NCBI GenBank assembly: GCA_963764715.1
Contig: CAVXTP010000017.1
Span: 65,524 to 129,523, forward strand
Direction: 5' to 3'
DNA: 64,000 nt
Source of the DNA: an uncultured Acidobacteriota bacterium
GTDB lineage: Bacteria; Acidobacteriota; Thermoanaerobaculia; UBA5066; Gp7-AA6
Part shown: positions 20,782 through 36,048 of the stretch, piece after piece
Numbering within the stretch: position 1 is the first letter of the stretch
Layout: the number at the start of each line of letters is the position of its first letter
Made by a program: the position numbers and the translations under genes
Notes under the pieces: generated by a model
Database searches by the model: none
Told to the model about the DNA's origin: nothing
The model's input: the letters and a program-made list of their open reading frames with translations, nothing else

Positions 20782-22299
20782 CTAGTTCCCCTTGAGGATG
20801 TCGATCGACCCGTTCGAGTCGGTCAGCGTCAGCGGACACTTGCCGTCGCCGATGCGCCCGTTGAGGCTCTCGCCCGAGACCGAGCCGGCCACGGTCAGCG
20901 GCAGCTCGGTCTTGATCTTGCCGAACGACGTCCTCGCCTCGACCGTGTAGCCCGCGCCTTCCGGCAGGCGGACCGTGATCGGGCCGAACGAGGTCCGCAG
21001 GGAAACGGGCTGGCAGGCGCCGCCCTTGCCACCGGCGGCGCGCACCTCGATGCCGCCGTTGGAGTTGTCGACGTCGATCTTGCCGTCGACGTCCTGGAGC
21101 CAGACCGAGCCGAACGAGGTCCGTACCTGCGCTCCGCCCCGAATCCCCTGCGCCTTGATGGCGCCGTTGGAGTTCTCGACCGTCAGGTCGCCCGTGACGC
21201 GGTTCGCCTCGGCCGGACCGAAGCTCGTCTTGAGGAAGGCGCCGCCCAGGACGTCCGTCGCCGACACGGGTGCGTTCTCGGCCACGATCCGGAGGCCCTT
21301 CTTCACGTTGGAGGCCGCGACCCGCGCGAAGGAGCCTCGCAGCTCGGCCGTTCCGGCCACGTCGTTGACCGAGATGGCCCCGTTCGAATTCGTCACGGAC
21401 ACGTCGCCGCCGAGGGCCGACATGACGACGCTCCCGAAGGACGAGCGCACGGTTGCCGGGCCCTTGATCGTGTCCGCGCTGACGGCGCCGTTGGAGTTCT
21501 CGACCTCGAGCGAGGACGACAGGTTGCGCGCCTCCACGCTGCCGAACGAGTTGGTGACCGACACCGGCCCCTTCGCGTCGTTGACGCTGACCGCGCCGTT
21601 GGAGCCCGAGATCGTCAGCTTTCCCAGGATCCGCGCGGCCGAGATCGGGCCGAAGCGGTTGCGGACCTGGGCGGCACCCGCGACGTCGTTGACCCCGATG
21701 CTCCCGTTCGAGCCGCTGATCTCGACGTTGCCCGCGTTCGACGTCAGCTCGATCGCGCCGAAGGCGTTCTCGATCTTCTGGTCTCCGCGTCCGTTGCGGA
21801 AGAGAACCTTGCCATTGGCGTTGGTGATCGCGCCGGCGGCCTTCAGGCCTTCGACCGACACGTCGCCGAATTTGTTGCGCGCCGACAACGGCATCGTTTC
21901 CGGCAGGACGATCTCGAAGTCGACGGAGTAGGACACGAACCCGGAGCCCGAGAACCTCCACTTCTTCTCGGGGTACTTCGTTCTGACGACGATCGCCGCG
22001 GCCGTCTCCTCGACCGAGATCGCGATCCCGTCGCCGAACGCCTTCGCCTCGCCGCTCGCGGACGTCGAGACCGCGACGTGCGCGCGGATCCGGACCTCGG
22101 GCAGCGCATGCGTCGTGATCCGCACCGCGCCCTGGCTGTGATCGATTTCGAAGCGCTGGCCGGGCTTGACGGCGAGCGTCTTCGAGAAGTCGCGCTCGTA
22201 GTCGTCGCGGGCCTCGCGGCTCGCGGCGGACAGCGCGGGGGCGAGCGCGGCGAAGGCCAGGAGGGCGGCCGCGGCCCATCGGGAAGGACGAGCGTTCAT
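20782..22299 (-). CDS. DUF4097-family beta-strand-repeat protein (putative adhesin fold), secreted
   Basis: The ATG at 22299 lies inside ORF 20782..22950. It has a signal peptide (MNARPSRWAAAALLAFAALAPALSAA). About 12 degenerate units of type SNG(A/S)(I/V)xVxDxxGxxxVxxSFGxV follow. Confidence 0.8.
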   Translation of the reverse strand: MNARPSRWAAAALLAFAALAPALSAASREARDDYERDFSKTLAVKPGQRFEIDHSQGAVRITTHALPEVRIRAHVAVSTSASGEAKAFGDGIAISVEETAAAIVVRTKYPEKKWRFSGSGFVSYSVDFEIVLPETMPLSARNKFGDVSVEGLKAAGAITNANGKVLFRNGRGDQKIENAFGAIELTSNAGNVEISGSNGSIGVNDVAGAAQVRNRFGPISAARILGKLTISGSNGAVSVNDAKGPVSVTNSFGSVEARNLSSSLEVENSNGAVSADTIKGPATVRSSFGSVVMSALGGDVSVTNSNGAISVNDVAGTAELRGSFARVAASNVKKGLRIVAENAPVSATDVLGGAFLKTSFGPAEANRVTGDLTVENSNGAIKAQGIRGGAQVRTSFGSVWLQDVDGKIDVDNSNGGIEVRAAGGKGGACQPVSLRTSFGPITVRLPEGAGYTVEARTSFGKIKTELPLTVAGSVSGESLNGRIGDGKCPLTLTDSNGSIDILKGN

Positions 22300-22961
22300 G
22301 ACTTGACCTCTTTCATCAGATCCTGCAGGGTGCGCTGCTTCTCGCGGTACGCGGCGAGCAGCTCCCGGCGCAGGTGGGTGTTGTAGCGGTTCTGTTCGAT
22401 CGACGATTTCAGGTCCGCGATCGCGGAGTCGAGGACCGCGAGCTTCTCGCGGTAGTTCAGGGCGAGCGGGGAGCTCGCGGCCTGGAGCTTCGGCGCGGCC
22501 AGGCGGGACAGTTTCTCGATCGACTCGACGTAGCCCTTCTCGGCCGCTTCGACCTCGTCGGCGGCGGCGTCGGCGAGGATGGGATCGCGGGTCGTCTCCC
22601 AGCGGCTGGCGAGCGGGTCGCGCCCGCCGCTGTTGCGGAAGACCCACAGGCCCGCGGTCGCGATCGCGAAGAGAGCGATGAGGGCGCCGGCCGGAAGGAG
22701 CCGGAGCCACGACGTCGACGGCACGGACTCGGATCCGGCCGGCTTCGCGGACTCCTCGGCCAGGCGCTGCCGGATCGAGGGCCAGAGCTCCGGGGAGGAC
22801 CACCGGACCCGCAGGGACGGCGCGGCGGCCGAGAGGCGGCGCCATTCCGCGAGCTCGCCGGCGCAGGCGGCGCAATCCCGCGCGTGCTCTTCGACGGCTT
22901 CGAGGAGCCCCGGGGCGCCGCTTTCGAGCGCCCGTTCGAGATCGCGGCACGCGGCTTTCAC
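22296..22961 (-). CDS. anti-sigma factor (zf-HC2 type, single-pass membrane)
   Basis: The GTG at 22961 overlaps the sigma gene stop (GTGA). The N-terminal motif is HARDCAACAGELAEW. There is one TM segment (LLPAGALIALFAIATAGLWVF) and a coiled C-terminal domain. Its stop overlaps the DUF4097 start (ATGA). Confidence 0.8.
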   Translation of the reverse strand: MKAACRDLERALESGAPGLLEAVEEHARDCAACAGELAEWRRLSAAAPSLRVRWSSPELWPSIRQRLAEESAKPAGSESVPSTSWLRLLPAGALIALFAIATAGLWVFRNSGGRDPLASRWETTRDPILADAAADEVEAAEKGYVESIEKLSRLAAPKLQAASSPLALNYREKLAVLDSAIADLKSSIEQNRYNTHLRRELLAAYREKQRTLQDLMKEVKS

Positions 22962-23521
22962 GGGGCCTCCGGCGGGAGAAACGCGCCCGCGGCCGAAAGC
23001 GTCTTCTGCAGCCGCCGCTTGGCGCGAAACAGCAGGCCCCGGGAAGCCGCCTCGGGCACCTCGAGGATCTCGCCGGCTTCGCGATGCGAGAGGCCCTCGA
23101 CCTCGCAGAGGAGAAACGCCGCCCGTTCGCGGGCGTCGAGGCGCGCGAGCGCCGCCTCGATCGCCAGTCGCAGCGCAGGATCCGTGTCGCGGACCGGCTC
23201 CTGCGCGATCGTCTCCGGCAGCGGGCCCTCCGCGCGGCGTCGGTTCTTGCGCATCAGGTCGTAGCAGGTGTTGACGAGGATGCGGTAGAGCCAGGTCGAG
23301 AGACTCGCGCCGCCGCGAAAGCCGGGCGCGGCCCGGTAGGCTTTGAGCATCGCCTCCTGGACCGCGTCTTCGGCGTCGGCGGCGTTGCCGAGAAGATTGG
23401 CTGCGATCGACTTCATCCGGTCTCCGTGCTCCGTGAAGAGCCATTCGAAGGCGGGCAGGCGGCCTGCTCGTAGACCCTCGAGAAGCTCCCCTTCGCCGGG
23501 CCGGACGTCGCTGCCTGACAG
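22958..23521 (-). CDS. ECF-type sigma-70 family RNA polymerase sigma factor (apparent CTG start)
   Basis: Region 2 (DAEDAVQEAMLKAYR, STWLYRILVNTCYDLMRK) and region 4 (LSHREAGEILEVPEAASRGLLFRAKRRLQ) are both present. The track start (ATG at 23416) removes the conserved ELLEGLRAGRLPAFEWLFTEHGDR segment. The in-frame CTG at 23521 is preceded by AAGGAG with a 6-nt spacer. No ATG, GTG or TTG exists between it and the upstream stop. Confidence 0.85.
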   Translation of the reverse strand: MSGSDVRPGEGELLEGLRAGRLPAFEWLFTEHGDRMKSIAANLLGNAADAEDAVQEAMLKAYRAAPGFRGGASLSTWLYRILVNTCYDLMRKNRRRAEGPLPETIAQEPVRDTDPALRLAIEAALARLDARERAAFLLCEVEGLSHREAGEILEVPEAASRGLLFRAKRRLQKTLSAAGAFLPPEAP

Positions 23522-23581
23522 GACGAACTCCTTTGCCGTCTGTGCGATGCGAACGATACACCTGCCTCCGGTCCGGTCGAA

Positions 23582-23608
23582 GGAACCATTCCCGGCTACT
23601 TGGACGTC
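23582..23608 (+). promoter_or_regulatory. ECF-like promoter candidate GGAAC-N18-CGTC pointing toward the histidine-phosphatase gene
   Basis: GGAAC lies at 23582-23586 and CGTC at 23605-23608. A similar GGAAG-N18-CGTC lies at 47300-47326 upstream of the YceI gene. These are short motifs and a chance occurrence is plausible. Confidence 0.25.
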
Positions 23609-23629
23609 GGCCGGGGGCGTTTCGTTCGT

Positions 23630-23730
23630 GGGGTCAGGTCTTCAAATTTCGGATTTCGCCGTGGGGATCGACCCTGGCCATCGAGACCGGCGGCCAGGTT
23701 GAAAAATCCGAAAAATGAAGACCTGACCCC
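23630..23730. repeat. 28-bp imperfect inverted repeat (25/28) carrying the motif CCGAAA-N5-AGACCTGACCC, arms at 23630-23657 and 23703-23730
   Basis: The reverse complement of 23630-23657 is GAAATCCGAAATTTGAAGACCTGACCCC. Positions 23703-23730 read AAAATCCGAAAAATGAAGACCTGACCCC. A third copy of the core lies at 47360-47381. Confidence 0.7.
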
Positions 23731-23744
23731 CGCTATAAGGGGCC

Positions 23745-24248
23745 ATGCGCCGGGTCGTTCTGCTCGCCGCCGTCATCGCGATTTCGGGTGCCGCGCAGGC
23801 GGCCGCCCAGCAGGTCGTCTTCGTCGTCCGTCACGCGGAGAAGATTTCGGACGAGGACGAGCGGTTGACGGAGGCCGGGCGCGCCCGGGCCGCGCGCCTG
23901 GCCGGGATGCTGCGGCGCTCGGGGATCACGGCGATCTACTCGACCGACACCGAGCGCACGCTCGGCACGGCGCGGCCGCTCGCCGACGCGCTCGGAATCA
24001 AAATCGCCATCTACGAAGCGAAGGCGATGAGCGGCCGCGTGGATTCCGCGGCCCTCGTCGAGCGGCTGCGCCGCGAGGCGCCCCGCGGCACGGTGCTCGT
24101 CGTCGGCCACAGCAACACGGTCCCGTCGCTTCTCGCGGCGCTCGGCTGCGGGGAGACCGTCTCGATCGGCAACGACGAGTACGACAACCTGTTCGTCGTC
24201 ATCCCGAAGGAGACCGGAAGAGCGACCCTCGTGCGGCTGAGGTACTAG
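23745..24248 (+). CDS. secreted histidine-phosphatase (phosphoglycerate-mutase/SixA-like) family protein
   Basis: It has a signal peptide (MRRVVLLAAVIAISGAAQAAA), the catalytic motif VVRHAEK, and the second histidine in VVGHSNT. Confidence 0.8.
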   Translation: MRRVVLLAAVIAISGAAQAAAQQVVFVVRHAEKISDEDERLTEAGRARAARLAGMLRRSGITAIYSTDTERTLGTARPLADALGIKIAIYEAKAMSGRVDSAALVERLRREAPRGTVLVVGHSNTVPSLLAALGCGETVSIGNDEYDNLFVVIPKETGRATLVRLRY

Positions 24249-24262
24249 CGGCGGTTGCGCTT

Positions 24263-26455
24263 CTACTGAAGCGAGAACGTCTTGACGATGAACACCGCCA
24301 TCTGGCCACGGGTGCTGTTGGCCGAAGGACAGTAGAGCGGAGGGCTGGCGGAGCAACCGCCCGTCACGCCCTCGGCCGCGAGCTGTTCGATCCAGTCGGC
24401 GAACGGCGACGGACAGGCGACGTCGTCGAAGGTCCCGGCGCAGGGTGGAGGCGCGAATCCCGATCCGTGCTCGCCCTTCATGAGGAAGACGGCCATCTGG
24501 TCCCGTCGCACCGGATCTTGCGGGCAGAACTTCCCGCCGCCGCAGCCGCCCGTGATTCCCTCGGCGGCCATCTGCTCGATCCACGGCGCGAACGACGATG
24601 AACACGGCACGTCGGAGAACACGCCCTGGCAAGGCGGCGGCGCGTAGCAGAGCCCGTGCTCCGCCTTGAGGATGAACACCGCCATCTGCTGCCGCAGCGT
24701 CGGTTGATTGACACCGTACATGCCTCCTCCGACGCCGGCGGTGATTCCGTTGGACACGAGCGTCGTGACGAACGCGTAGAACTGCGTACCGGAGTCGACG
24801 TCGAGGAAGTTCGAGACCCAGCCCTTGACCAGCGTCCCGCTCGTGCCGTCCGTGTTCGTCACGACGAGATCGTTGACGGTCCCGGCCGCCAGGATCGGAC
24901 TCGTGGCGTTGATCTGACCTCCGTTGACGACGTTGACGCCCGTCGCCGCCTGGCCGCCGATCGTCACCGCCGCGCCCGCGGCGAAGTCCGTCCCGAAGAT
25001 CGTGATCGGGATACCGACGGTGGGCGGACCCGACGGGGGCGAGACCGAGAACGGCAGGCGCTGCGAGAACTCGGAGGTCCGGCCGGTCGCGTGGTTGGTC
25101 GCCGTCATGCTGATTCGGGCGCCCGCCTCGGTCGCGACGGGGAGCGTGGTGTCGATCGACACCGTTCCCGCGCCGTCGGTCGTGACCTGGTCCGAGCCCA
25201 GGTAGGTCTTCCCCTCGTCGAAATCACGGGGGAAGTTCGAGCATGCCGGGTTCGAATAAAAATCGATGTCGTACATCGTCGAAGCCAGCGAGTGCAGCGC
25301 GGCCTGGACGTGCGTGGTCGCTCCCGTCGTGACCGACTTCAGGAGCGGGAAGTTCTGGATGCCGTCCACGTCGCCGGGGTCGTTCCTGGTGACCCCGTCG
25401 GACAGCATGTCGATGCCGAGGCCCGAGAAGCCGGGGTCTCCCCCGTTGCCATAGATGGAGTTGCCCCGGATCGTGCCGCCGCTGAAGACGCTTCCGATCA
25501 CGCCGATGCGCGTCATACCCGTCACGATGTTGCCCTCGCCGGGATTGACGCCGCCGACGATGGCGTCGATGCCGGGATCGATGCCGTAGGCGGTCGCGGG
25601 GGGAAACACGACGGTTCCGCTGGCGTCGACGCCGATCCGGTTGCCCTGGATTACCGTGCCGTCACACTGCGCCTGGATCGCCGCCCCCCGAAAGCCGGCG
25701 ATGACATTGCCGAGGACCGAGTTCGTGGCGGCGGCGGCCGAGCAGGACCCCAGGGTCACGCCGGTGCTCGTCGGAGCCTGCGTCAGCGCGACCGTGCCGG
25801 TCGAGTCCGTGCCCATCAGGTTGTTCTGGACGACGAATCCACTCGGGTTGCTCGAGTGCGCCGCGGAATACGCCGAGCCGATGACGTTGCGCTGCGCGAG
25901 CGCCGGGCCCCCGACGGTGCCCGAAATCATGTCGACGCCGACGTGGTTCCCCGAGGCCGTCAGCCCCGAGGCGTCGATTCCGATGAAGCAGCCCTCGACA
26001 TGCGCGGCCACCTCGTCGAAGCACACGACGGCCTCGTTGAATCCCCCGTTGATCACGAGACCCCGGACCGTTCCCCCGTTGATCCCGAAGATGATGCCGT
26101 CGGCATTCGGAATATTGGCTGCCGAGAGGACGATTTTCAGGACGGCGTTCGAGCCGAAGGTCGCCGTGTTCACGGACGCGCCCGGCTGGGTGTACCCGTC
26201 GATCGTCGCGATGTCGTTGACACCGGGCAGCTGCGAGGTCGGCGCGATCGTGCACACGCCCGAGCCGTCGCAGCCGGCTCCGGTGACGTTGAACGCGACC
26301 GTGTCGGCGCCGGCGTTCGCGTTCGCGTCGAGGATCGCCTGCCGGAGCGAGCCGGCCCCTGCGTCGTTCGTGTTCGTGACGGTGAACGTGGCCGCGGAGA
26401 GTCTCGCGGCGACGATCACTCCCGCAGCGATGCACAGGCAGAGCGCGACTTTCAC
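24263..26455 (-). CDS. secreted CSLREA-motif / parallel beta-helix / IPT-TIG protein with three C-terminal Cys-rich SLH-like repeats (paralog A)
   Basis: The GTG at 26455 lies inside ORF 24263..27457 and is preceded by GAGGAGG. It starts with a signal peptide. Then comes ATFTVTNTNDAGAGSLRQAILDANANAGADTVAFNV. Next are repetitive G/N/V-rich beta-helix turns and an IPT-like segment (ITIFGTDFAAGAAVTIGGQAATGVNVV). Three SLH-like repeats follow, the last ending TRGQMAVFIVKTF. Confidence 0.85.
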   Translation of the reverse strand: MKVALCLCIAAGVIVAARLSAATFTVTNTNDAGAGSLRQAILDANANAGADTVAFNVTGAGCDGSGVCTIAPTSQLPGVNDIATIDGYTQPGASVNTATFGSNAVLKIVLSAANIPNADGIIFGINGGTVRGLVINGGFNEAVVCFDEVAAHVEGCFIGIDASGLTASGNHVGVDMISGTVGGPALAQRNVIGSAYSAAHSSNPSGFVVQNNLMGTDSTGTVALTQAPTSTGVTLGSCSAAAATNSVLGNVIAGFRGAAIQAQCDGTVIQGNRIGVDASGTVVFPPATAYGIDPGIDAIVGGVNPGEGNIVTGMTRIGVIGSVFSGGTIRGNSIYGNGGDPGFSGLGIDMLSDGVTRNDPGDVDGIQNFPLLKSVTTGATTHVQAALHSLASTMYDIDFYSNPACSNFPRDFDEGKTYLGSDQVTTDGAGTVSIDTTLPVATEAGARISMTATNHATGRTSEFSQRLPFSVSPPSGPPTVGIPITIFGTDFAAGAAVTIGGQAATGVNVVNGGQINATSPILAAGTVNDLVVTNTDGTSGTLVKGWVSNFLDVDSGTQFYAFVTTLVSNGITAGVGGGMYGVNQPTLRQQMAVFILKAEHGLCYAPPPCQGVFSDVPCSSSFAPWIEQMAAEGITGGCGGGKFCPQDPVRRDQMAVFLMKGEHGSGFAPPPCAGTFDDVACPSPFADWIEQLAAEGVTGGCSASPPLYCPSANSTRGQMAVFIVKTFSLQ

Positions 26456-26481
26456 GAAACCTCCTCGTGTCGTTGGAACTC

Positions 26482-28641
26482 TCAAAACGACAGACCGAAC
26501 GTCTTGACCATGAACACGGCCATCTGGCCGCGGGTGTTGTTGTTGCCCGGGCAGTAGTTGCCTCCCCCGCAGCCTCCGGTGATGTTCTCGGCCGCGAGGC
26601 GCTCGATCCAGTCCGCGAAGGTCGACGGGCAGGGAACGTCGCCGAAGACCCCCACGCAGGCCGGCGGCACGTAGCTCGATCCGTGCTCTCCCTTGAGGAG
26701 GAACACCGCCATCTGGTCGCGCCGCACCGGGTTCTGCGGGCAGAACTTCCCGCCGCCGCAGCCGCCGGTGATCCCTTCGGCGGACATGGCCTCGATCCAC
26801 GCCGCGAAACTGGACGGGCAGGGCACGTCGGAGAACGTGCCCGCACACGGCGGCGGCGTGTAGCACAGCCCGTGCTTGGCCTTCAGCAGGAAGACCGCTA
26901 TCTGCTGGCGCAGCGTCGGGTTGTCGACGCCATAAAGCCCGCCGCCGATGCCGACCGTGATCGCGTTCGAGACGAGGCCGGTGACGTAGAAGTAGAACTG
27001 GTTGCCGGAATCCACGTCGAGGAAGTTCGAGACCCAGCCCTTCACGAGGGTCCCCGACGTTCCATTGGTGTTCGTGACGACGAGGTCGTTGACGGAACCG
27101 GGCGTCAACGCCGGAGTCCCGCCGGTGATCTGGTTGAAGCCGTTGACCGAGATGTCCGTCGCCGGCTGGCCGCCGACCGTCACCGTCGCGCCGGCCTCGA
27201 AATCGGTGCCGGCGATCGTCATCCCGTTTCCGGCCGCGGCGGGGCCGGCGGCCGGCGTCACCGAGAAGGGCAGGCGCTGCGAGAACTCCGAGGTCCTTCC
27301 GCCGGGCGTCGTCGCCGTGACCGAGATCCGCGCGCCCGCCGCCGTCGCCACGGGCAGCGAGACGTCGAAGGACCCGACGCCCGCGCCGTCCGTCGTGACC
27401 TGGCTCGAGCCGAGATACGTCTCCCCTTCGAGGAACTCCCGCGGGAAGTTCGAGCACGCCGCGTTCGAGTAGAAGTCGAGGTCGAACACCGTGGACGGCG
27501 TCGAGTGCAGCAGGCCCTGAACGTGCGTCGGGTTGCCGGTCGTCACCGACTTCAGGACCGGAAAGTTCTGGATGCCGTCCGCCTCGGCCAGATCGTTCGG
27601 CGTTGCCCCGTCGTTGCCCACGTCGATCCCGAGGCCCGCGTTGTCGTGGATGGAGTTGCCGCGGATCGTCACGCCGTCCACGACGTTCACGAAGATTCCG
27701 TTCCCGGAGCTGTACGCGATGATGTTGCCCTGGCCGGTCCCGATCCCCCCGATGGTGACATCGTCGTTCATCACGGTGATCGCGCCCGGCCCCGTGCCGA
27801 GCGGCAGAGTTCCCGTCACGTCCGTGCCGAGCTTGTTGCCCTGGATCACGGTTCCGAGCCCCGCGCCGTCGATCAGGCTGAATTCGGCGGCGGCCATGAC
27901 GTTGTCGCGGATCGTGACGCTCGGCGACGCACCGGCGACGGCGGTGCCGGGACCGATGGCCGAGGTTCCCGCCGCGTCGGTTCCGAAGAGGTTGTTCCGC
28001 ACCAGCAGGCCGGGCTGCCCTTCACACTCGATGTGATAGATCGTCGCGGCGGCGAAGAGATTCCGATCGGCCGGGTTCGGGCCGCCGACGACCGTCCCGG
28101 ACCCCACCACGTCGACGACCGAGACGGCGGTCGGATCGGCCGTGTGCCCGTCCGGCGCGACACCGAAGAAGCAGCCCGTGATGTGGGTGTCCGTTCCGCC
28201 CAGGATGTCGATGGCCGGATGCCAGTCCTTCCGGAAGACGAGGCCCCGCACGGTCGCCGGGCCCGTCACCGTGAAACAGAGCTGGTTCGAGAGGTTGACC
28301 GCCGAGAGGACGATCTTCAGGACCGCGTTCGTGCCCTGCGCGAGCGTGTTGACCGAGGCCCCCGGCTGGGTGTAGCCGTCGATCGTGACGGGGTCGGTGA
28401 CGTTGACCAAAGGATTGAGCGGCGCGATCGTGCAGACGCCGCTGCCGTCGCAGCCCGAATCGGACCCCGGAATGTTGAACGCGATCGTGTCGGCGCCGGC
28501 GTTGTTGTCGGCGTCGATGATCGCCTGCCGGAACGAGCCCGCGCCCGAGTCGTTGGTGTTGGTCACCGTGAACGTCGCCGCCGAGAGATTCGAGATCAGG
28601 AGAACGCCCGAGGCGAGGCCGACGCCGAGTCGATGTCTCAT
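26482..28641 (-). CDS. secreted CSLREA-motif / parallel beta-helix / IPT-TIG protein with three C-terminal Cys-rich SLH-like repeats (paralog B)
   Basis: The ATG at 28641 lies inside ORF 26482..29040. It has the same architecture as paralog A (ATFTVTNTNDSGAGSFRQAIIDADNNAGADTIAFNI ... TRGQMAVFMVKTF). The C-terminal thirds are about 80% identical by eye. Confidence 0.85.
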   Translation of the reverse strand: MRHRLGVGLASGVLLISNLSAATFTVTNTNDSGAGSFRQAIIDADNNAGADTIAFNIPGSDSGCDGSGVCTIAPLNPLVNVTDPVTIDGYTQPGASVNTLAQGTNAVLKIVLSAVNLSNQLCFTVTGPATVRGLVFRKDWHPAIDILGGTDTHITGCFFGVAPDGHTADPTAVSVVDVVGSGTVVGGPNPADRNLFAAATIYHIECEGQPGLLVRNNLFGTDAAGTSAIGPGTAVAGASPSVTIRDNVMAAAEFSLIDGAGLGTVIQGNKLGTDVTGTLPLGTGPGAITVMNDDVTIGGIGTGQGNIIAYSSGNGIFVNVVDGVTIRGNSIHDNAGLGIDVGNDGATPNDLAEADGIQNFPVLKSVTTGNPTHVQGLLHSTPSTVFDLDFYSNAACSNFPREFLEGETYLGSSQVTTDGAGVGSFDVSLPVATAAGARISVTATTPGGRTSEFSQRLPFSVTPAAGPAAAGNGMTIAGTDFEAGATVTVGGQPATDISVNGFNQITGGTPALTPGSVNDLVVTNTNGTSGTLVKGWVSNFLDVDSGNQFYFYVTGLVSNAITVGIGGGLYGVDNPTLRQQIAVFLLKAKHGLCYTPPPCAGTFSDVPCPSSFAAWIEAMSAEGITGGCGGGKFCPQNPVRRDQMAVFLLKGEHGSSYVPPACVGVFGDVPCPSTFADWIERLAAENITGGCGGGNYCPGNNNTRGQMAVFMVKTFGLSF

Positions 28642-28701
28642 GGGACCTCCGTCGTGCGGGGATCGGCGGCAATCTAGGGGCCGGAGGCGGCTCCGGAAAT
28701 A

Positions 28702-28713
28702 GCATGGCCATGC
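28702..28713. promoter_or_regulatory. 12-bp perfect palindrome GCATGGCCATGC upstream of paralog B (possible operator)
   Basis: Read directly from the sequence, 61 nt upstream of the ATG at 28641. It lies in the 116-nt gap between the NarL-type regulator and paralog B. Confidence 0.3.
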
Positions 28714-28757
28714 GGTCCGGCCGCGAGCACGATCGGTGCGATTCCGGGGACGGGCGC

Positions 28758-29423
28758 CTACTCGATCAAGCCGCGCCGCAGCCCGCGGCTCACGGCCTCG
28801 GACTTCGAGTGCACGTGGAGCTTGTCGTAGACGCTCCGCACGTGGTCCCGGACCGTGTTGATCGACACGCCCAGCCGATCCGCGCAGGTCTGGTAGCTGT
28901 GCCCCTCCGCCAGCAGACGCAGGAGACTTCGCTCCTGGGCCGTCAGGGGCGACTCTCCCGGAGGCCGCGCCGGCGAACGCTGGAAGTGCTCGACCATCCG
29001 GCGGGCGATCTCGGGCGACAGCGGGGAGCCGCCGCTCCATGCCTGGCGCACCGCTTCCGCGATCTGCGCCGGGGGCGTCTTCTTGAGGAGGTACCCGCAG
29101 GCGCCGTTGCGGATCGACGCGAAGACCTGCTCCTCTTCCTCGTACACCGTCAGCATCAGGACCCGCGTTTCGGGGAAACGATCGCGGATGACCGCGACGC
29201 CCTCGACGCCGGACATGCCCGGGAGATGGATGTCGAGAAGGAGCACGTCGCAGGGAGCCGCGTCGAGCCTCGCGACGGCCTCTTCGACGGACGGAAAGGC
29301 GCCGACGCAGGCGAGCCCCGGCGAGCGGTCGAGGATCGCGCCGAGACCCTCGCGGATCAGGCGCTTGTCCTCGACGAGGGCCACGCGGATCCGGCTCGGA
29401 GGCGGCGTCGGCATCGAACGCAT
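28758..29423 (-). CDS. NarL/FixJ-family two-component response regulator
   Basis: It has a receiver domain (VALVEDKRLIREGL..., DVLLLDIHLPGMSG, KT in LLKKT). It also has a LuxR-type HTH (LTAQERSLLRLLAEGHSYQTCADRLGVSINTVRDHVRSVYDKLHV). Confidence 0.92.
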   Translation of the reverse strand: MRSMPTPPPSRIRVALVEDKRLIREGLGAILDRSPGLACVGAFPSVEEAVARLDAAPCDVLLLDIHLPGMSGVEGVAVIRDRFPETRVLMLTVYEEEEQVFASIRNGACGYLLKKTPPAQIAEAVRQAWSGGSPLSPEIARRMVEHFQRSPARPPGESPLTAQERSLLRLLAEGHSYQTCADRLGVSINTVRDHVRSVYDKLHVHSKSEAVSRGLRRGLIE

Positions 29424-29458
29424 CCTCCGGCGCTACGCGGCCGGCCGCAACCGCATCC

Positions 29459-32400
29459 TCATGCGGAGCGCGCCGCCCGGCCGCGCAGGGGCACCCGCAC
29501 GCGGATCCGCGTGCCTCCCGGCCTCCGGGAATCCGCCTCGAAGGTGCCGCCGAGGCCGAGGGCGCGCGCCTTCATGTTGGCGAGGCCGTGCCCCGCGCAC
29601 GCGCCGGCCGCGCCTTCCGCGAACCCGATCCCGTCGTCCTCGACCTCGATCGAAAGCGTCTGCGCCTCCGGCGCGATGCGGATCGAGGCCCGTCCCGCGC
29701 GGGAATGGCGGGCGACGTTCGTCAGGGCCTCCTTGAGCACCAGGTAGATCTGCCGCCGGGTCTCGGGCTCGAGCGCGCGCTTCTCGAAATCCGGCGCGAC
29801 CTCGAGGGTCCAGGCGATCCCCCGGCCCTCGAGGGCGTTCGCGGCGAAGTGCCGGATCCGCGCGAGCAGGCTCGCGGCGTCGTCCCGGCGCGGGTCCGTG
29901 GACCACACGATGTCGCTCATGGAGTCGACGAGCGCACGCGCCCGCTCGCCGATCTCCTGGAGCACCTTTCCGGGATCGCGGCCGGGCGATCCCCGCGGCA
30001 GCTCCGAGAGGATCGCGATCTCCGAGAGGCCGGCGCCGACGTCGTCGTGGAGGTCGGTGGCGACGCGCGTGCGGACCCGGTCGATCGCGAGCGCCCGCTT
30101 GAGGCGGCTGCGGTGGAGGGCGTAGGCCGCGGCGAGGGCCAGGAGAGCGAGGCCTCCGATCACCTCCGGCCGCTTCCAGAACGACGGGAGAACGCGGAAG
30201 CGGACCTCGGCCTCCCTCCCTCCCATCGATCCGTCGTTGGCGATGGCGCGCACGCGGAAGCGGTAGGCGCCCGACGGCAGCCTCGCGTAGACGACCGACG
30301 GCCGGGACGTCGGCGCGCTCCAGTCGCGGTCGAGGCCGTCGACCCGGTACTGGTAGCGCGGCCGGCCACCCGGCGCGAAATCGAGCGCGACGAAGTCGAT
30401 CTCGACGGAGGTCGGCTCGGTCGCGCGCGCCGACAGCTGCGCCGAGGTCACGCCGAGCTCGGCGAAGGGCTCGCGGACGCCGTTGACGAGCACGCGCGTG
30501 ACCCGCAGCGGCAGCGCCTTCCGAGGCGCGTCGGGGACCGGCTCGAGCCACGAGAGGCCCTCCGAGGAGCCGAACCAGAGACGTCCCCGGCGGTCCCGGA
30601 GGCAGGTCTCGATCACTCCGCGGGCGAGACCGTCGTCGCTCGTGAAGTGCTGGACGTTCCCGCTCGCCGGATCGACCCGGTCGAGGCCCCGCTCGGTCCC
30701 GGCGTAGATGCGCCCCTGCGGGTCCTCGGCCAGCGAATACGCGTTGTCGCTCGCCAGGCCCTGCGCCGAGGAGACGCGTTCGAAACGCACGGAAGCCTCG
30801 GCCGGCCGGTCGACCCGGGCGAGGCCGCCGCGGCTCGTCGCGATCCATAGCCGTCCCGCGCGGTCGACGTGGAGGGCGCGGACCGATCCCGGCGGCAGCC
30901 CTTCGCGCTCGCCGAACGCGGCGGACTTCCCGCCGTGCCGGCGGACGAGCCCGCCCCGAAGGAAGCCGATCCACACGCCCCCGCCCGGGTCTTCGGCGAA
31001 CGCCATCGGCAGCTCCGCCGGGATGCCGTCGGCCGCCGAAAGAGTCTCGATCCGGTCCGTCGAGCGTTCCCAGCGCGCGAGCGGCCGATCCGTGCCCGCG
31101 AGCCCCATCCAGAGGTCCCCCCGGCGGTCTTCGAAGAGACGGTAGACCTGGTCGGAGGGCAGCCCGTCGCGCTGCGTGTAGACCCGTCGCGGCGCGACCT
31201 GCCCGAGCCGCTCGAAGGGCACCGCGGGAAACCGGAAGAGCCCCGCGAAGGTCGGCACCCACCACTCGCCGGCGGAGTCCCGCAGCGTGAGTTGATTCCA
31301 TCCCCATCCGTAGGACGTACCCGCCGGAAGGCGCACGCGCTGCGTGTGAAAGCGCTCCCCGTCGAAGCACTCGAGGAAGCCGTCGTCGCCCCCGACGTCC
31401 TCGGGTCGCCGGCCACGGGTGAATGCGCAGGGCGCGCCGCCGACGCCCGCGAAGAGGGCGCTCACCCGGTCGCTCGAGAGCCCGTCGCGGGAGTCGAGCC
31501 GCCGGAAGCCGTTCCGGGCGAGCCGCATGACGCCCGCGTCGTCGCTTCCGATCCAGAGGTTCCCCTCGCCGTCTTCCGCGAGCGACCAGATCCCGAAGCC
31601 CGCCAGCCCCTGCGCCATCGTGTGGCTCCGGACCGACGCGCGATCGGCGGCGATCTCGGAGACGCCGCCGAAGCAGGCCGCCCAGATTTCTCCGTCGGAA
31701 GTTCTCTTCAGCGCCGTGACGTGGTTTCCGGCCAGGCCGTTCTCGCTCCCGAACGCGTGCCGGGCGACGAGCTCGCCCGATGCGGAGCGGCGGACCTCCG
31801 CGATTCCCTCGGCGAGCGTCCCGACCCACAGCGGGCCGTCGGGCTCGGCGAGCAGGGCGCGGACCGTTCGCGGCGGCCCGTTCGGACCGCCGACCCGAAC
31901 GGCCGTGCTCCCCGCCCGAAGCCGGAAGAGGCCGCCCTCGGTTCCGACGAAGAGATCTCCGCCGGGGCCCCGGGCGAGCGCGTTGACGATGCGGGCGTCC
32001 GCATTGCCCGGGGGTTCGAAACGGACGCGCTCCGCCGCCCAGCTCCGCCCCGAGGGCGACACACGATAGAGCCCGTCGCGCGTTCCCGCCCAGAGCACGC
32101 CGCCGTCCTCGAGCAGCGCCTCCACCTCGTCGCCGCCTCCCGCGCCGGCGGGATGGACCACGAGCATCGACGCCGGCGGCCCGGTCGGCTCCCGGGCCGG
32201 ATTCCAGCGCACGATCCCCCGGTTGGTCGCGGCCCAGTACGCACCGTCGCCCGCCTCCAGGAGGTCGCCCACCTCGGGACCGGGCAGTCCCTCGGGCACG
32301 CCGAGGCCGGTGAACCCGTAGCCGTCGAAGCGCGCGATCCCGTCGGACGTTCCGAGCCAGAGGTAGCCGTGCGAGTCGGGAAGGATCGCGTGGATCCGGT

Positions 32401-32521
32401 CGCTCGGGAGGCCGTCGGCCGTCGTGTAGAGCTTGAGGGGGAGCTGCTCGCCGAACGTGGTGCCGGCGACCGCCGCGATGGCGGCGAACGAGACGGCGCG
32501 GAGCGCGCGTCCGGGATTCAT
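29459..32521 (-). CDS. sensor histidine kinase with periplasmic beta-propeller repeats and Y_Y_Y domain (HisKA_3 type)
   Basis: It contains many 'two-component regulator propeller' units (GLPSDRIHAILPDSHGYLWLGTSDGIARFDG...) and a Y_Y_Y-like segment (RYQYRVDGLDRDWS...YRFRVRAI). One TM segment follows (VIGGLALLALAAAYAL). The kinase part has an H-box (VATDLHDDVGAGLSE) and an HATPase domain (EVEDDGIGF, GHGLANM). Confidence 0.9.
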   Translation of the reverse strand: MNPGRALRAVSFAAIAAVAGTTFGEQLPLKLYTTADGLPSDRIHAILPDSHGYLWLGTSDGIARFDGYGFTGLGVPEGLPGPEVGDLLEAGDGAYWAATNRGIVRWNPAREPTGPPASMLVVHPAGAGGGDEVEALLEDGGVLWAGTRDGLYRVSPSGRSWAAERVRFEPPGNADARIVNALARGPGGDLFVGTEGGLFRLRAGSTAVRVGGPNGPPRTVRALLAEPDGPLWVGTLAEGIAEVRRSASGELVARHAFGSENGLAGNHVTALKRTSDGEIWAACFGGVSEIAADRASVRSHTMAQGLAGFGIWSLAEDGEGNLWIGSDDAGVMRLARNGFRRLDSRDGLSSDRVSALFAGVGGAPCAFTRGRRPEDVGGDDGFLECFDGERFHTQRVRLPAGTSYGWGWNQLTLRDSAGEWWVPTFAGLFRFPAVPFERLGQVAPRRVYTQRDGLPSDQVYRLFEDRRGDLWMGLAGTDRPLARWERSTDRIETLSAADGIPAELPMAFAEDPGGGVWIGFLRGGLVRRHGGKSAAFGEREGLPPGSVRALHVDRAGRLWIATSRGGLARVDRPAEASVRFERVSSAQGLASDNAYSLAEDPQGRIYAGTERGLDRVDPASGNVQHFTSDDGLARGVIETCLRDRRGRLWFGSSEGLSWLEPVPDAPRKALPLRVTRVLVNGVREPFAELGVTSAQLSARATEPTSVEIDFVALDFAPGGRPRYQYRVDGLDRDWSAPTSRPSVVYARLPSGAYRFRVRAIANDGSMGGREAEVRFRVLPSFWKRPEVIGGLALLALAAAYALHRSRLKRALAIDRVRTRVATDLHDDVGAGLSEIAILSELPRGSPGRDPGKVLQEIGERARALVDSMSDIVWSTDPRRDDAASLLARIRHFAANALEGRGIAWTLEVAPDFEKRALEPETRRQIYLVLKEALTNVARHSRAGRASIRIAPEAQTLSIEVEDDGIGFAEGAAGACAGHGLANMKARALGLGGTFEADSRRPGGTRIRVRVPLRGRAARSA

Positions 32522-32564
32522 GACGTCGTGCGGGAAGTCTCCGCTTCGAACCCCCGGGACAGGC

Positions 32565-34379
32565 CTACCAGCCGACCGGCTTTCCCTTGTTCTGCTCGTC
32601 GAGCCACTTCTGGAGCGGGGCGAAGTAGTCGCGGATCGCGGTCGCGTCCATCTGCCGCTGGCCCGTCAGGGCCTCGAGCGCGTCGGGCCAGGGACGGGAC
32701 TGCCCCATCGCCAGCGTGTCGCGCAGGCGCTTGCCCGCCGCCGCGTTTCCGTAAATCGAGCAACGGTTGAGCGCTCCCGTGCAACCCGCGGTCTTCGTCA
32801 GCGCCCGGTGGAACTGGAACTGCAGGATGTCGGCGAGGAAGTAGCGCGTGTACGGAACGCCCGCGGGCACGTGGTACTTCGCGCCCGGGTCGAACGCGTC
32901 GGCCGGACGCGCGATCGGCGGCGCGACGCCCTGGTACTTCAAGCGCAGGTCCCAGAACGCCTTGTTGTAGTCGGCGGGCGGAATCTCCCCGGAGAAGACC
33001 TTCCAGCGCCACTGGTCGATCAGGAGGCCGAAGGGCAGGAAGGCCACTTTCTCGAGCGCCTTCTGGAGAAGCAGGCCGATGTCCCTGGACGCGTCGGGGG
33101 CCGAGGAGAGGAGGCCGAGCTTCACGAGGTACTCCGGCGTCACCGAGAGCGCGACCGTGTCGCCGATCGCTTCGTGAAAGCCGTCGTTGGCGCTGTCGCG
33201 GAAGAGCACGGGCTGCGTGTCGTAGGCCCGCTGGTAGTAGTTGTGGCCGAGCTCGTGATGCACGGTGACGAAATCCTCGGCCGTGATGTCGATGCACATC
33301 TTGATCCGGAGGTCGTCCACGTAGTCGATGTCCCAGGCGCTCGCGTGGCAGACGACCTCGCGGTCCTGCGGCTTCACGAACATCGAGCGCTCCCAGAAGG
33401 TCTTCGGGAGCGGGTCGAAGCCGAGGGAGCTGAAGAAGCCCTCGCCGTACCGGACCATCTGGCGCGCGTCGGTCTTCCGGGACTTGAGGATCTCGGTCAG
33501 GTCGTAGCCGGGATCGGCCCCCTTCGGCGCGACCAGCGGATAGACGTTGTCCCAGGTCTGGGCCCACATGTTGCCGAGCAGATGGGCCGGGATCGGTCCG
33601 GTCGCCGGCACGGCGTCGCCGTACTTTTCCCGCAGCTTCCACCGCACGTACGCGTGGAGCGAGACGTAGAGCGGACGCACCTGCTCCCAGAGCCGGTCGA
33701 GCTCGGCTGCGAACGCCTCCGGCGCCATGTCGTACTTCGAGCGCCACATCGCGCCCGTGTCCTTGTAGCCGAGCTCCCGCGCGCCCTTGTTGGCGAGCTC
33801 GACGTACCGCACGTAGTTCGGCTGGATGGGCGGCGCGATCGTGTGCCAGCCGGCCCAGACGTCGAGGAGCTGCTTCGCGTCCCGCGACGTGGCCATGATC
33901 TTCGTGATGTCCTCGAGGTCGAGGCACTTTCCCTCGGGCGGGCAGTACTTGCCCTTGCCGTACATGCCCTCCATCGCCGCCCCGAGCCGCGTCAGCTCCG
34001 CCGCCTCGGCCGGGTCCCCGGGTGCCGCGACCGTCAGCGCGAGCTTCAGAAGCTTCAGCTTGCGCGCCGTCTCGGCGTCGGCAGGGACGCCGTCGAACCG
34101 CGTCGCCTGCTTGGCATACCGGACCCCGGCCGAGATCGCCTTCTCGTTGGCCTGGGCCGCCAGAATCTCGGTGTCGTCCGTGATGTACGTCGACTTGACC
34201 CAGTCGGCGCGGCTCGAGTCGATCCAGAGCCTCAAGAGGTCCTTCTCGGCCGCCTCGACGAAGGCCTTCGCCTCGCCGGCGGTCGGCGCCGCCGCCGCGG
34301 TCTGGGCCGCAGCCTCAGCGGACACGAGTGCCCCCGCCAGTAACAAACCGGCCGCGAGGCCGGAAAGCGGTCTCCTCAT
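32565..34379 (-). CDS. peptidyl-dipeptidase A (M2 family; angiotensin-converting-enzyme homolog), secreted
   Basis: A 604-aa ORF with a signal peptide. The zinc site is HHELGH followed by HEAIGD (HExxH + E). End-to-end it resembles single-domain ACE. Confidence 0.88.
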   Translation of the reverse strand: MRRPLSGLAAGLLLAGALVSAEAAAQTAAAAPTAGEAKAFVEAAEKDLLRLWIDSSRADWVKSTYITDDTEILAAQANEKAISAGVRYAKQATRFDGVPADAETARKLKLLKLALTVAAPGDPAEAAELTRLGAAMEGMYGKGKYCPPEGKCLDLEDITKIMATSRDAKQLLDVWAGWHTIAPPIQPNYVRYVELANKGARELGYKDTGAMWRSKYDMAPEAFAAELDRLWEQVRPLYVSLHAYVRWKLREKYGDAVPATGPIPAHLLGNMWAQTWDNVYPLVAPKGADPGYDLTEILKSRKTDARQMVRYGEGFFSSLGFDPLPKTFWERSMFVKPQDREVVCHASAWDIDYVDDLRIKMCIDITAEDFVTVHHELGHNYYQRAYDTQPVLFRDSANDGFHEAIGDTVALSVTPEYLVKLGLLSSAPDASRDIGLLLQKALEKVAFLPFGLLIDQWRWKVFSGEIPPADYNKAFWDLRLKYQGVAPPIARPADAFDPGAKYHVPAGVPYTRYFLADILQFQFHRALTKTAGCTGALNRCSIYGNAAAGKRLRDTLAMGQSRPWPDALEALTGQRQMDATAIRDYFAPLQKWLDEQNKGKPVGW

Positions 34380-34491
34380 TCGATCCTCCAGCGTACGACT
34401 TCGTTTTCGACACCGGAGAAATCTACATCAGGCCCGCAGGGCGAAAGGGCCCTCCGCAAAGTGAGTCAAACGACCCTTGCGCGGCCCGCCC

Positions 34492-35997
34492 TCAGCCGAT
34501 CCGCACGAAGTCGATGAAGCCGCGCTCGACGTCCGTCGAGATGAGCTTGACGCGGAGGCGGTCGCCGACCTCGAGATCTTCCCAGCCGTGGACGAGCTTG
34601 CCCTCGACGGGCGGCTGGAAGATCCGGACCCAGGTCCCCTTCTCCGACGCGCCCGTGACGATGGCGTCGAAGGCCTGGCCGATCCGCGGCTCGAGGAGAA
34701 GCGCGGCCGCGGATTTGCGGACCTGCCGCTCGACCTTGTCGGCGTCGTCCTCCTGCTCCGTGCAGTGGGTCGCGAGGAAGCCGAGCTCGGCGACGTCGTA
34801 GGCCGGCGGCTCGCCCGCGAGCGCCGCCTTGACGAGGCGCTGCGTGATGAGGTCGGGGTACCGGCGGTTCGGCGCCGTCGAGTGCGTGTAGTCGCGGACC
34901 GCCAGGCCGAAGTGGCCGATCGCCGCCTGGCCGGGCCGCTCGACGACGTACTCGCCGGCGCCCATCAGCTTGATGATCACGAGAGAGAGATCCGGGAACC
35001 TCAGGGGATCGGCGCGGCGACGCTTCACGAGGAAGGCCTCGAGGGCCCGCGCGTCCGGCTCGGCGGGCAGGCGCTCCCCCGACTGGGCCGCGACCGACAC
35101 GATCTTCGACCACCGCTCGGGCGAGCGGACGACGCGGCGGAGCGACGCGATGCCGCGCGACGCGAGAAACCGGGCGGTCACGCCGTTGGCGGCGATCATG
35201 AAATCCTCGATGAGCTCGCGGGCCCGGTTCTTGGGCTGGACCGCGAGGTCCGTCACGGTGTCGTCGACGAAAACCGCGCGGGGCTCGATCGTTTCGAGGT
35301 CGAGCGCACCCTCCTCGTGGCGCCGCGTGCGGAGCGCCTGCGCCACCGCGTCCTGGGCGCGGAGCTGCTCGGCCGCCCCCGGGGTTCCGTCGACCTTCTC
35401 CGGCATCGCTCCGCCCTCGAGACCGACGGAGACGCTGTCGTAGGCGAGCTTGGCCCGGTTGTGGACGGCGGCGCGGTAGATGTCGGAGCGGACGAGGGTC
35501 CCGTCCTTCTCGAAATCCATCTCGGCGACGACGGCGAGCCGGTCTGCGGCCTCGTTCAGCGACGTCAGGTCGGTCGAGAGCTTCTCCGGCAGCATCGGAA
35601 AGATCTCCGCCGCCGTGTAGATCGAGGTCGTGTTCGTCCGCGCGTGCTCGTCGATCGACGAGCCCTTCGGAACGAGCGCGTCGACGTCGGCGATCGCGAC
35701 GAAGATCCGCGTGCGCCCGCCGGGGATGGCCTCGGACACGGACAGCTGGTCGAGGTCGCGCGAGTCGTCGTTGTCGATCGAGACCCAGAGCCGGTCGCGC
35801 AGGTCCCGGATGCCGGCGCCCGAGGCCGTCGCCGGGCCCCGGATCGCGGAGAGCTCCGCGAGAACGTCGCGCGAAAAGTCGGGGGCGAGCCCCCGGTCGA
35901 CCATCGCCTTTCGGGCGATCGCCTTCAGGTCCGCGCGGTCGTGCCGCCCGGTGCGCGCCTTGCGCCGATCGAGCCCGCTGCGCCGCTCGCGTTCCAC
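34492..35997 (-). CDS. RNB-domain exoribonuclease (RNase II/R family, short form) with C-terminal S1-like domain
   Basis: RNB motifs are present (SIDNDDSRDLDQ, HFGLAVRDYTHSTAPNRRYPDLI), along with a C-terminal S1-like segment (GQAFDAIVTGASEKGTWVRI). The start is uncertain: GTG at 35997, GTG at 36036, or the ATG (MVDRG) further in. Confidence 0.8.
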   Translation of the reverse strand: MERERRSGLDRRKARTGRHDRADLKAIARKAMVDRGLAPDFSRDVLAELSAIRGPATASGAGIRDLRDRLWVSIDNDDSRDLDQLSVSEAIPGGRTRIFVAIADVDALVPKGSSIDEHARTNTTSIYTAAEIFPMLPEKLSTDLTSLNEAADRLAVVAEMDFEKDGTLVRSDIYRAAVHNRAKLAYDSVSVGLEGGAMPEKVDGTPGAAEQLRAQDAVAQALRTRRHEEGALDLETIEPRAVFVDDTVTDLAVQPKNRARELIEDFMIAANGVTARFLASRGIASLRRVVRSPERWSKIVSVAAQSGERLPAEPDARALEAFLVKRRRADPLRFPDLSLVIIKLMGAGEYVVERPGQAAIGHFGLAVRDYTHSTAPNRRYPDLITQRLVKAALAGEPPAYDVAELGFLATHCTEQEDDADKVERQVRKSAAALLLEPRIGQAFDAIVTGASEKGTWVRIFQPPVEGKLVHGWEDLEVGDRLRVKLISTDVERGFIDFVRIG

Positions 35998-36048
35998 GCG
36001 GCGGAGTTTACGCGAGGGCGGCCGCGCCGCGGGCACTATGATTTCGGC

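Follow-up and report, generated by a model that had tools for sequence, protein, structure and literature searches.

The Gene Pair and Its Setting

The Thermoanaerobaculia are abundant, mostly uncultured bacteria of soils and sediments. A stretch of 64,000 nucleotides (nt) from an uncultured member of this group within the Acidobacteriota (GenBank assembly GCA_963764715.1, contig CAVXTP010000017.1, positions 65,524 to 129,523, hereafter the window) carries on its minus strand two large tandem genes, A and B, lying head to tail downstream of the genes for a sensor histidine kinase and a NarL/LuxR-type response regulator. A and B belong to a very large family of β-helix proteins with SLH repeats. 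It is proposed here, with moderate confidence, that both are exported envelope proteins in which a conserved anchor-and-stalk cassette carries a paralog-specific head, and that they form an operon run by the adjacent two-component system.

Gene A (26482-28641, minus strand) encodes 719 amino acids (aa) from an ATG start codon with GGAGG 4 nt upstream, and gene B (24263-26455, minus strand) encodes 730 aa from a GTG start codon, its GGAGG ribosome-binding site being held in the 26-nt spacer between the two genes (26456-26481, minus strand). An earlier note on this DNA, made from the sequence alone, had described two genes of 730 and 719 codons lying head to tail and 26 nt apart, preceded on the same strand by the genes of a histidine kinase and a NarL-type regulator, and the gene calls bear this out on every point, the kinase occupying 29459-32521 and the regulator 28758-29423. 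Since a generic promoter and terminator scan found no terminator in the A-B spacer, the two genes are probably co-transcribed.

The guanine + cytosine (G + C) content at third codon positions (GC3) is 0.92 in A and 0.90 in B, which equals that of the neighbouring genes in this window of about 70% G + C. A horizontal origin of the pair was considered and rejected, because the lower total G + C content (0.68) is due to codon positions 1 and 2 and GC3 is native. Searching with tblastn gave no further family member in the window beyond A and B, and an Rfam scan of 23000-33000 gave no match. A database protein identical to B was found (P0010, NCBI/ENA, on a 210-kb contig); the exact sequence of A is absent from the database records, and its nearest relative (P0001, 96% identity) sits on a forest-soil contig having the same kinase-regulator-A order as the window.

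Architecture and Predicted Folds

Both proteins score above the Pfam thresholds for SLH (PF00395, PROSITE PS51272; 40.6 bits in A and 52.5 bits in B against a cut-off of 20.8) and for IPT/TIG (PF01833; 28.5 and 31.2 bits, respectively, against 20.9), and a sub-threshold Beta_helix match appears in A only. AlphaFold2 (AF2) models, built with an alignment of 84 sequences, have a predicted local distance difference test score (pLDDT) of 92.1 and a predicted template modelling score (pTM) of 0.88 for A, and 91.5 and 0.87 for B, and they display one and the same layout of β-helix, β-sandwich, IPT domain and three helical SLH repeats. The shared architecture claimed earlier is thus borne out by Pfam and by the models.

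Protein A consists of a signal peptide (aa 1-21, 28579-28641), a β-helix head (aa 22-345, 27607-28578) including a variable core (aa 116-335, 27637-28296), a stalk of β-sandwich and IPT/TIG (aa 355-539, 27025-27579) and three SLH repeats (aa 540-719, 26485-27024), all on the minus strand; in the AF2 model the β-sandwich spans aa ~362-445, the IPT/TIG domain ~458-538 and the SLH helix-loop-helix repeats ~545-719. Protein B, likewise on the minus strand, has its signal peptide at aa 1-21 (26393-26455), its β-helix head at 22-355 (25391-26392), its stalk at 364-549 (24809-25366) and its three SLH repeats at 550-730 (24266-24808). The signal peptides are of the Sec type with a cleavage site between LSA and ATF, a pattern that recurs in the family consensus, so that export of A and B is well supported by prediction. 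In the predicted models the capped heads of both proteins have the right-handed parallel β-helix (pectin-lyase-like) fold. As for the stalk, the IPT region gives PDB profile matches to the IPT domains of Met and plexin, and the β-sandwich segment "TD..GN.SE.S" is similar to Ig domains of the Bap type.

The SLH Triplet and Cellular Location

A DNA periodicity of 189 nt occurs three times in each gene, matching the SLH repeats, and the predicted SLH triplet folds as a three-pronged spindle with a three-helix core and three lobes. The residues of the SLH ligand pocket are Trp13, Gly29 of GIIxG and Arg43 of the TRAE motif (Blackler et al., PMC6081394). Their equivalents in A are Y550/G564/R578, W615/G627/R641 and W678/G690/R704, that is, Tyr550 replaces Trp13 in repeat 1 and repeats 2 and 3 keep Trp. 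These residues are invariant across 84 family members, except for Y550, which is conserved in at least 90%. The SLH repeats therefore retain the residues that bind pyruvylated wall glycan, and binding itself is predicted. Furthermore, repeats 2 and 3 and the linkers contain nine cysteines that do not vary among the 84 members, and this fits with an oxidising, extracytoplasmic location.

The host phylum Acidobacteriota, which belongs to the Gracilicutes, consists of two-membrane bacteria. In two-membrane bacteria the SLH domains studied so far are periplasmic and bind a wall-linked pyruvylated polymer, and tethers of the OmpM type are reported to be absent from the Gracilicutes (PMC10628300). 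The default reading would consequently be that A and B are wall-tethered inside the envelope, unless there is an additional secretion step. The earlier note had spoken of an exported cell-surface protein; export is upheld by the Sec-type signal peptides, and the surface location is not, in view of the periplasmic SLH domains just mentioned. Among the window genes scanned no wall-polymer or secretion gene was found, the rest of the window consisting of housekeeping and lipid-metabolism genes, and the literature on SLH in Thermoanaerobaculia or Acidobacteria yielded nothing usable.

Divergence between A and B

Overall, A and B are 59% identical, and the identity is very unevenly distributed: 35% in the signal peptide (residues 1-20), 78% in residues 21-60, 75% in the whole N-terminal cap (21-115), 33% in the helix core (116-335), 71% in residues 336-719 and 74% in the last 180 residues, the SLH region. 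The far more divergent central β-helix noticed earlier is confirmed (33% in the core versus 71-78% in the ends). The N-terminal 60 residues, said to be nearly identical, are highly similar in the mature part (21-60) and dissimilar in the signal peptide, and the "about 80%" given for the C-terminal thirds was too high, the measured values being 72-74%.

In a sliding Nei-Gojobori analysis of A versus B, synonymous divergence (dS) is about 0.5-1.0 along the whole gene, and nonsynonymous divergence (dN) rises from 0.1-0.3 in the ends to 0.55-0.78 in the core. dN/dS remains at roughly 1 or less, with local values of up to about 1.3 in the sliding analysis. Uniform divergence along the length, as would be left by a simple old duplication, was accordingly not observed. 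The two- to three-fold excess of dN in the core is also seen between A or B and their orthologs in other genomes. Gene conversion as the cause of the conserved ends was rejected: dS is even along the gene, and the best A-B DNA matches are only 73-89% identical, with no long identical tract. Because of this, purifying selection at the protein level, rather than recent gene conversion, is judged to keep the ends alike, and the core evolves faster in every lineage. GC3 near 0.9, however, means that dS is compressed and probably saturated, so absolute dN/dS values cannot establish positive selection. Of the diverged ligand-binding face proposed earlier, the non-uniform divergence is therefore retained and positive selection on a binding face is not.

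The Family of Beta-Helix Proteins with SLH Repeats

A word-indexed search (E <= 0.001), among 8,000 scored candidates, gave more than 4,700 proteins with the architecture of A and B, which bear automatic names only and come from metagenome-assembled genomes (MAGs) of Thermoanaerobaculia. In addition, a scan of species-representative genomes gave at least 517 confirmed stretches, from which 70 loci were kept, each belonging to a MAG of Thermoanaerobaculia or Acidobacteriota. In the 70 loci there are 230 genes that terminate in the SLH cassette; almost all share one strand, and an array may have as many as 8 genes in a 20-kb locus. At least 25 copies are present in one MAG and at least 23 in another, and on one contig 19 copies are packed into 82 kb across four adjacent loci. 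In L004, L005 and others the array stops at a typA/bipA gene of convergent orientation; this genomic position is a conserved one and is unlike the window's. Throughout the family, alignment columns are conserved in the N-terminal cap (21-115), variable in 116-330 except at Gly, Asn and "GTD" repeat positions, and conserved again from about 330 onward, and some members carry different or longer N-terminal parts on the same stalk-and-anchor cassette. From these alignments the profile of conserved ends and variable core is a property of the whole family. The earlier note had seen in the pair a duplicated protein; the two genes are not a private tandem duplicate but a small outlying branch of this family of more than 4,700 proteins.

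With 136 full-length members, neighbour-joining gives an identical 8-member clade whether the whole protein, the head or the tail is used; the clade is composed of A, B, the regulator-adjacent genes of five loci (L001, L002, L003, L012 and L023) and one gene of L015, near which there is no kinase-regulator pair. The nearest relatives of B are the L015 gene and the genes beside the regulator in L023, L003 and L012 (66-69% overall, 52-57% in the head); those of A are the genes beside the regulator in L001 and L002 (61-62% overall, 40-41% in the head). Because each is closer to genes in other genomes than to its own neighbour, the A/B duplication is, on this phylogenetic evidence, an old one within the lineage associated with the two-component system. 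Shuffling of cassettes among members was considered and rejected, since head and tail trees recover the same clade.

It might be supposed that the tandem paralogs are a variation system, in which the conserved ends serve as recombination handles for head swaps giving antigenic or phage-receptor variation. The large same-strand arrays, the conserved 5′ and 3′ gene ends and the variable centres are what such a system would look like. However, dS is no lower in the ends than in the core, even the longest A-B DNA matches show the modest identity given above, the congruent head and tail trees carry no shuffling signal, and orthologous heads are recognisable between genomes, so this explanation is highly improbable.

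The Two-Component System and Its Linkage to the Family

The sensor histidine kinase (1020 aa, minus strand) contains the Pfam domains Reg_prop (151 bits), Y_Y_Y (47), HisKA_3 (26) and HATPase_c (49). Its topology comprises a hydrophobic N-terminal signal or anchor, a periplasmic region of about 750 aa, a single transmembrane segment near 786-802 and a DesK-like cytoplasmic part with the H-box LHDDVG; the transmembrane-like segment and the H-box were read from the sequence, a hydropathy scan (threshold 1.6) having flagged no segment. The kinase matches DesK in the PDB, and its periplasmic region gives sequence matches to domains of Bacteroides hybrid sensors, namely 4a2l (E 4e-47), 3v9f and 3ott/3va6. 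Sensor domains of this kind bind oligosaccharide products of polysaccharide-utilisation loci, and by analogy the homology is a lead towards a glycan signal for the kinase.

The response regulator (minus strand; Response_reg 80 bits, GerE 48.7 bits) has an intact phospho-acceptor pocket made up of E18/D19, Asp64, Thr92 and Lys113-114. Its annotated ATG (29423) directly abuts GGAGG, and the ATG at 29414 (Met4) is properly spaced from it, so the true start is probably Met4 (giving 218 aa), as called in the near-identical forest-soil contig L071.

Orthologs of the kinase (55-61% identity) and of the regulator (71-78%) were detected by tblastn in only 6 of the 70 loci (L001, L002, L003, L012, L023 and L060), and in all six the pair is directly followed by a family member; in L060, where the end of the locus intervenes, the gene that starts behind the regulator is of the A type. 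Contig L071 also has the order kinase, regulator, A. The kinase-regulator-paralog arrangement, whose conservation the earlier note had proposed to survey, is thus conserved in seven other contigs.

The outer flanks are not conserved. A radical-SAM/DUF2344 gene precedes the kinase-regulator-array block in L002, L003, L023 and L060, and the M2 peptidase, histidine phosphatase and extracytoplasmic-function (ECF) sigma factor genes of the window, the first two of which flank the system there, are not kept beside it in other genomes. The M2 peptidase gene (32565-34379, minus strand, 43 nt upstream of the kinase) encodes a full-length protein similar to angiotensin-converting enzyme (Pfam Peptidase_M2, E 5e-228).

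In-array neighbours in other genomes include Ser/Thr protein kinases of about 960-1170 aa on the opposite strand (L008 5588-8695, L011 16893-19865, L012 14744-18244 and L022 12184-15072, all minus in locus coordinates), three of which have long TPR regions, the one in L008 having only a sub-threshold TPR_9 match. These enzymes may be an alternative signalling input for arrays without a two-component system.

The Operator-Like Inverted Repeat

A survey of palindromes covered the window and the six kinase-regulator loci, L071 being left out. The inverted repeat CCGCAT-N4-ATGCGG occurs twice per locus, once upstream of the regulator gene and once upstream of gene A. The pattern CCGCATNNNNRTGC has 4 matches in the window against 0.27 expected.

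The element upstream of A (CCGCATGGCCATGCTAT, with the core palindrome GCATGGCCATGC; 28699-28715, minus strand) lies in the regulator-to-A spacer, is unique in the window and has its centre about 43 nt upstream of the transcription start, which is predicted near 28664. This spacer cannot be aligned between genomes except for three parts: CCGCAT-N3-CATGCTAT, which corresponds to 28699-28715 of the window and is invariant, a -10-like hexamer and the ribosome-binding site. In the window the hexamer is TAGATT (28671-28676, minus strand), 22 nt after the TAT that ends the element, and its equivalents in other loci are CACAAT, GACAAT and CAGAGT; the 22-nt spacing is kept in 6 of the 7 aligned loci and is 23 nt in L023. 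Moreover, each of the six kinase-regulator loci has a single match to the pattern GCATNNNCATGCTAT, which is missing from all 64 other family loci. The generic scan gave no sigma-70 consensus promoter and no convincing terminator, its matches being at chance level; the absent sigma-70 match would fit a weak -35 region and dependence on an activator, and a 6-4-6 repeat near -43 of a promoter with a poor -35 region is as would be expected for a dimeric helix-turn-helix activator.

The copy upstream of the regulator gene is the perfect 6-4-6 inverted repeat CCGCATGAGGATGCGG (29451-29466, minus strand), which overlaps the stop codon of the kinase gene. An element of the CCGCATGAGGATGCGG type occurs at the same place in L002, L003, L012, L023 and L060, and in degenerate form in L001. 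In the window a hexamer GAGGAT follows 25 nt after CCGCATGAGGATGCGG and 7 nt before the likely regulator start, and in the other loci a hexamer nAnGAT is again found 25 nt downstream. The distance of 25 nt from palindrome to -10-like hexamer is conserved at both positions, upstream of the regulator gene and upstream of A. A third GCAT-N4-ATGC, inside gene B (25405-25416), was rejected as a regulatory site, since it encodes a conserved G-I-D-M with the same codons in B-type orthologs.

The earlier suggestion that the pair is probably controlled by the adjacent sensor is supported by the synteny in seven contigs together with the shared palindrome, and from this predicted circuit the kinase and regulator very probably control A and B. 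A decidedly unlikely alternative is that the kinase-regulator pair and A-B are merely co-inherited neighbours, the palindromes serving some other factor or reflecting constraint on the kinase C-terminus or the ribosome-binding site, and that A-B expression does not depend on the two-component system. About 128 of the 136 tree members lack a two-component system next to them, Ser/Thr kinases occur in its place in other arrays, and the regulator-proximal palindrome overlaps coding sequence and a stop codon, all of which accord with that alternative. On the other hand, the adjacency is limited to one monophyletic clade and is kept at 55-78% protein identity while the outer flanks differ, and the element upstream of A is invariant in otherwise unalignable non-coding DNA and absent from the 64 other loci.

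Relatives and Possible Function of the Heads

A search with a profile made from the heads of A and B (cap and helix, about 340 aa) brings up 30,021 cluster representatives, of which 4,237 reach E <= 1e-30, and the best matches are proteins of 2-7 kaa (thousand amino acids) with 6-19 complete copies of the module. The cap motif is GSFRQA in A and GSLRQA in B; at the same cap position in the 150 best module relatives GSLRQA was counted 236 times, CTLRAA 18, CSLREA 15 and CTLREA 12 times. The NCBIfam CSLREA model gives no match with full-length A or B, nor, at E <= 10, with their N-terminal 97-98 residues taken alone, so membership of A and B in that model was rejected. The label "CSLREA motif" used earlier nevertheless points to the right homologous position, because CSLREA-type motifs are minority variants at this cap position; the literal motif in A and B is GS(F/L)RQA, and the model assignment did not hold. 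NCBIfam gives no family-specific name to the sampled relatives of the head module, and a literature search on CSLREA found nothing usable.

The closest solved fold to the heads of A and B is PDB 8wm1, deposited as a 3-dehydroshikimate dehydratase, an activity that is normally found on unrelated folds. HMMER searches of the PDB with a single sequence, a two-sequence profile and an 84-sequence profile detected no relative of the heads by sequence, 8wm1 included, and no paper on 8wm1 or on a β-helix dehydroshikimate dehydratase was found. It is possible, though somewhat unlikely, that the heads are enzymes: they could be depolymerases, lyases or epimerases with polysaccharides of the envelope or the environment as substrates, or else dehydratases of small molecules, as 8wm1 is by its deposition. 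On that view the family would form a repertoire of enzymes tethered to the wall, whose products the kinase would sense much as happens at a polysaccharide-utilisation locus, an extension to be taken just as tentatively. The pectin-lyase-like fold and the resemblance to 8wm1 speak for enzymes; against them, the sequence alignment of the 8-member clade contains no obvious catalytic cluster in the helix core.

A Model for the A-B Operon

According to the model that we favour, A and B would be exported by Sec and cleaved between LSA and ATF, and their three SLH repeats would fold into a three-pronged spindle that docks non-covalently on a pyruvylated wall-linked glycan. The stalk would consist of two Ig-like domains, and the function would be carried by the β-helix head of about 325 residues, with conserved N-terminal and C-terminal caps and a fast-evolving core. 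The heads would most likely be specificity-determining binding modules for glycan-like ligands, possibly catalytic in some members. The periplasmic double-propeller/Y_Y_Y domain of the kinase would sense an extracytoplasmic ligand, and the adjacent NarL-type regulator, phosphorylated by this neighbouring kinase, would be the probable activator that binds the CCGCAT-N4-ATGC(GG/TA) inverted repeat centred near -43 in the promoter of the A-B operon; the other copy, in front of the regulator gene, points to autoregulation.

Several observations weigh against this model. With two membranes, the SLH anchor would place A and B in the periplasm unless a further export step exists, and no csaB-type pyruvyl-transferase was found among the window genes scanned. 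The residues of the core (116-335) that are invariant family-wide are only Gly, Asn and Arg at repeat positions and provide no clue to a ligand or an active site, and 8wm1 is, by its deposition, a small-molecule enzyme and not a glycan binder. In addition, the -10-like hexamer next to the regulator-proximal repeat stands only 7-13 nt before the likely start codon; the transcript from this copy may be a nearly leaderless mRNA, or the element may work differently.

A wider proposal can be put forward, which must be regarded as rather doubtful. The Thermoanaerobaculia would possess a lineage-specific repertoire of dozens of heads, each fastened by a cysteine-stapled SLH triplet to a pyruvylated wall polymer within the envelope of two-membrane Gracilicutes, and the A/B clade would be the output of a sensor circuit, the SLH-anchored counterpart of a polysaccharide-utilisation locus with a defined operator. 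It is no less speculative that the head would in that case bind or process an extracytoplasmic polymer and that the kinase would sense this polymer or its products.

A family with tens of genes per genome is likely to be central to the interaction of Thermoanaerobaculia with their surroundings, and the present locus is the most tractable entry to it: the two genes, a probable operon, are accompanied by a sensor and a regulator of their own and by a candidate operator that is sharply defined.

Other Genes in the Window

An ECF sigma factor gene (22958-23416, minus strand) is followed by an open reading frame (ORF) of 722 aa without a Pfam match (20782-22950, minus strand), which could encode a large anti-sigma factor or sensor partner. 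In 34477-37008 long ORFs overlap on both strands, the minus-strand ORF having RNB and RNase II S1 domains in its C-terminal 440 residues and the plus-strand ORF having Cation_efflux and ZT_dimer in its last 300 residues; the actual genes probably converge and do not extend over the whole ORFs. A plus-strand cluster at 3555-11229 encodes an LPG_synthase_TM protein, a nucleotidyl transferase, a class-III aminotransferase, a GFO/IDH oxidoreductase and myo-inositol-1-phosphate synthase, which suggests synthesis of an inositol-derived lipid or solute. Another plus-strand cluster, concerned with lipid modification (48164-55271), encodes a fatty-acid desaturase, an amine-oxidase-type flavoprotein, two methyltransferases similar to cyclopropane-fatty-acid synthase and a DUF2062 protein.

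Comparison with Known Systems

The SLH-carrying S-layer proteins of Firmicutes and the proteins associated with their S-layers, such as Bacillus anthracis Sap and Paenibacillus alvei SpaA and SlhA (3pyw, 6bt4, 6cwc), belong to single-membrane hosts, whereas the host of A and B is a two-membrane acidobacterium. Unlike those proteins, the family of A and B has dozens of copies per genome and is not lattice-forming; Tyr stands for Trp13 in repeat 1, and the nine invariant cysteines are unmentioned in the consensus SLH motifs quoted in PMC6081394. The OmpM/SlpA tethers of two-membrane Terrabacteria (PMC10628300) are like A and B in that SLH is used in a two-membrane bacterium, and OmpM binds a pyruvylated wall polymer from the periplasm, as is presumed for A and B. 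However, OmpM combines one SLH domain with a coiled-coil stalk and a β-barrel in the outer membrane, while A and B have three SLH repeats, no barrel and a β-helix head. The family raises a question for envelope biology, namely the role of a canonical-looking SLH triplet in a two-membrane phylum not known for SLH tethers.

With respect to the heads, 8wm1 is a protein of 464 aa in which no SLH anchor is evident and which has no HMMER similarity to them. The multi-module giants with GSLRQA/CSLREA caps, an unannotated superfamily, have the same complete head module and cap position as A and B; these proteins of 1-7 kaa contain 3-30 matched stretches per listed protein, but A and B each have one copy fused to the stalk and the SLH anchor.

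The hybrid two-component sensors of Bacteroides (4a2l/4a2m, 3v9f, 3ott) have a periplasmic part of the same type as the window kinase, with Reg_prop propellers and Y_Y_Y, and they likewise lie near genes for exported proteins, an interaction with glycans being only possible for A and B. In the Bacteroides hybrid two-component systems (HTCS), however, kinase, receiver and AraC output are fused, whereas the window kinase ends after HATPase_c and is served by a separate NarL-type regulator; moreover, the locus lacks SusC/SusD genes, unlike the polysaccharide-utilisation loci of Bacteroides. The building blocks, that is, the SLH anchor, the IPT domain, the β-helix module and a NarL-type system with a propeller sensor, are known. 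New are the way in which they are combined, the extent to which the family has expanded in a phylum with two membranes, the SLH variant rich in cysteine and a defined candidate operator.

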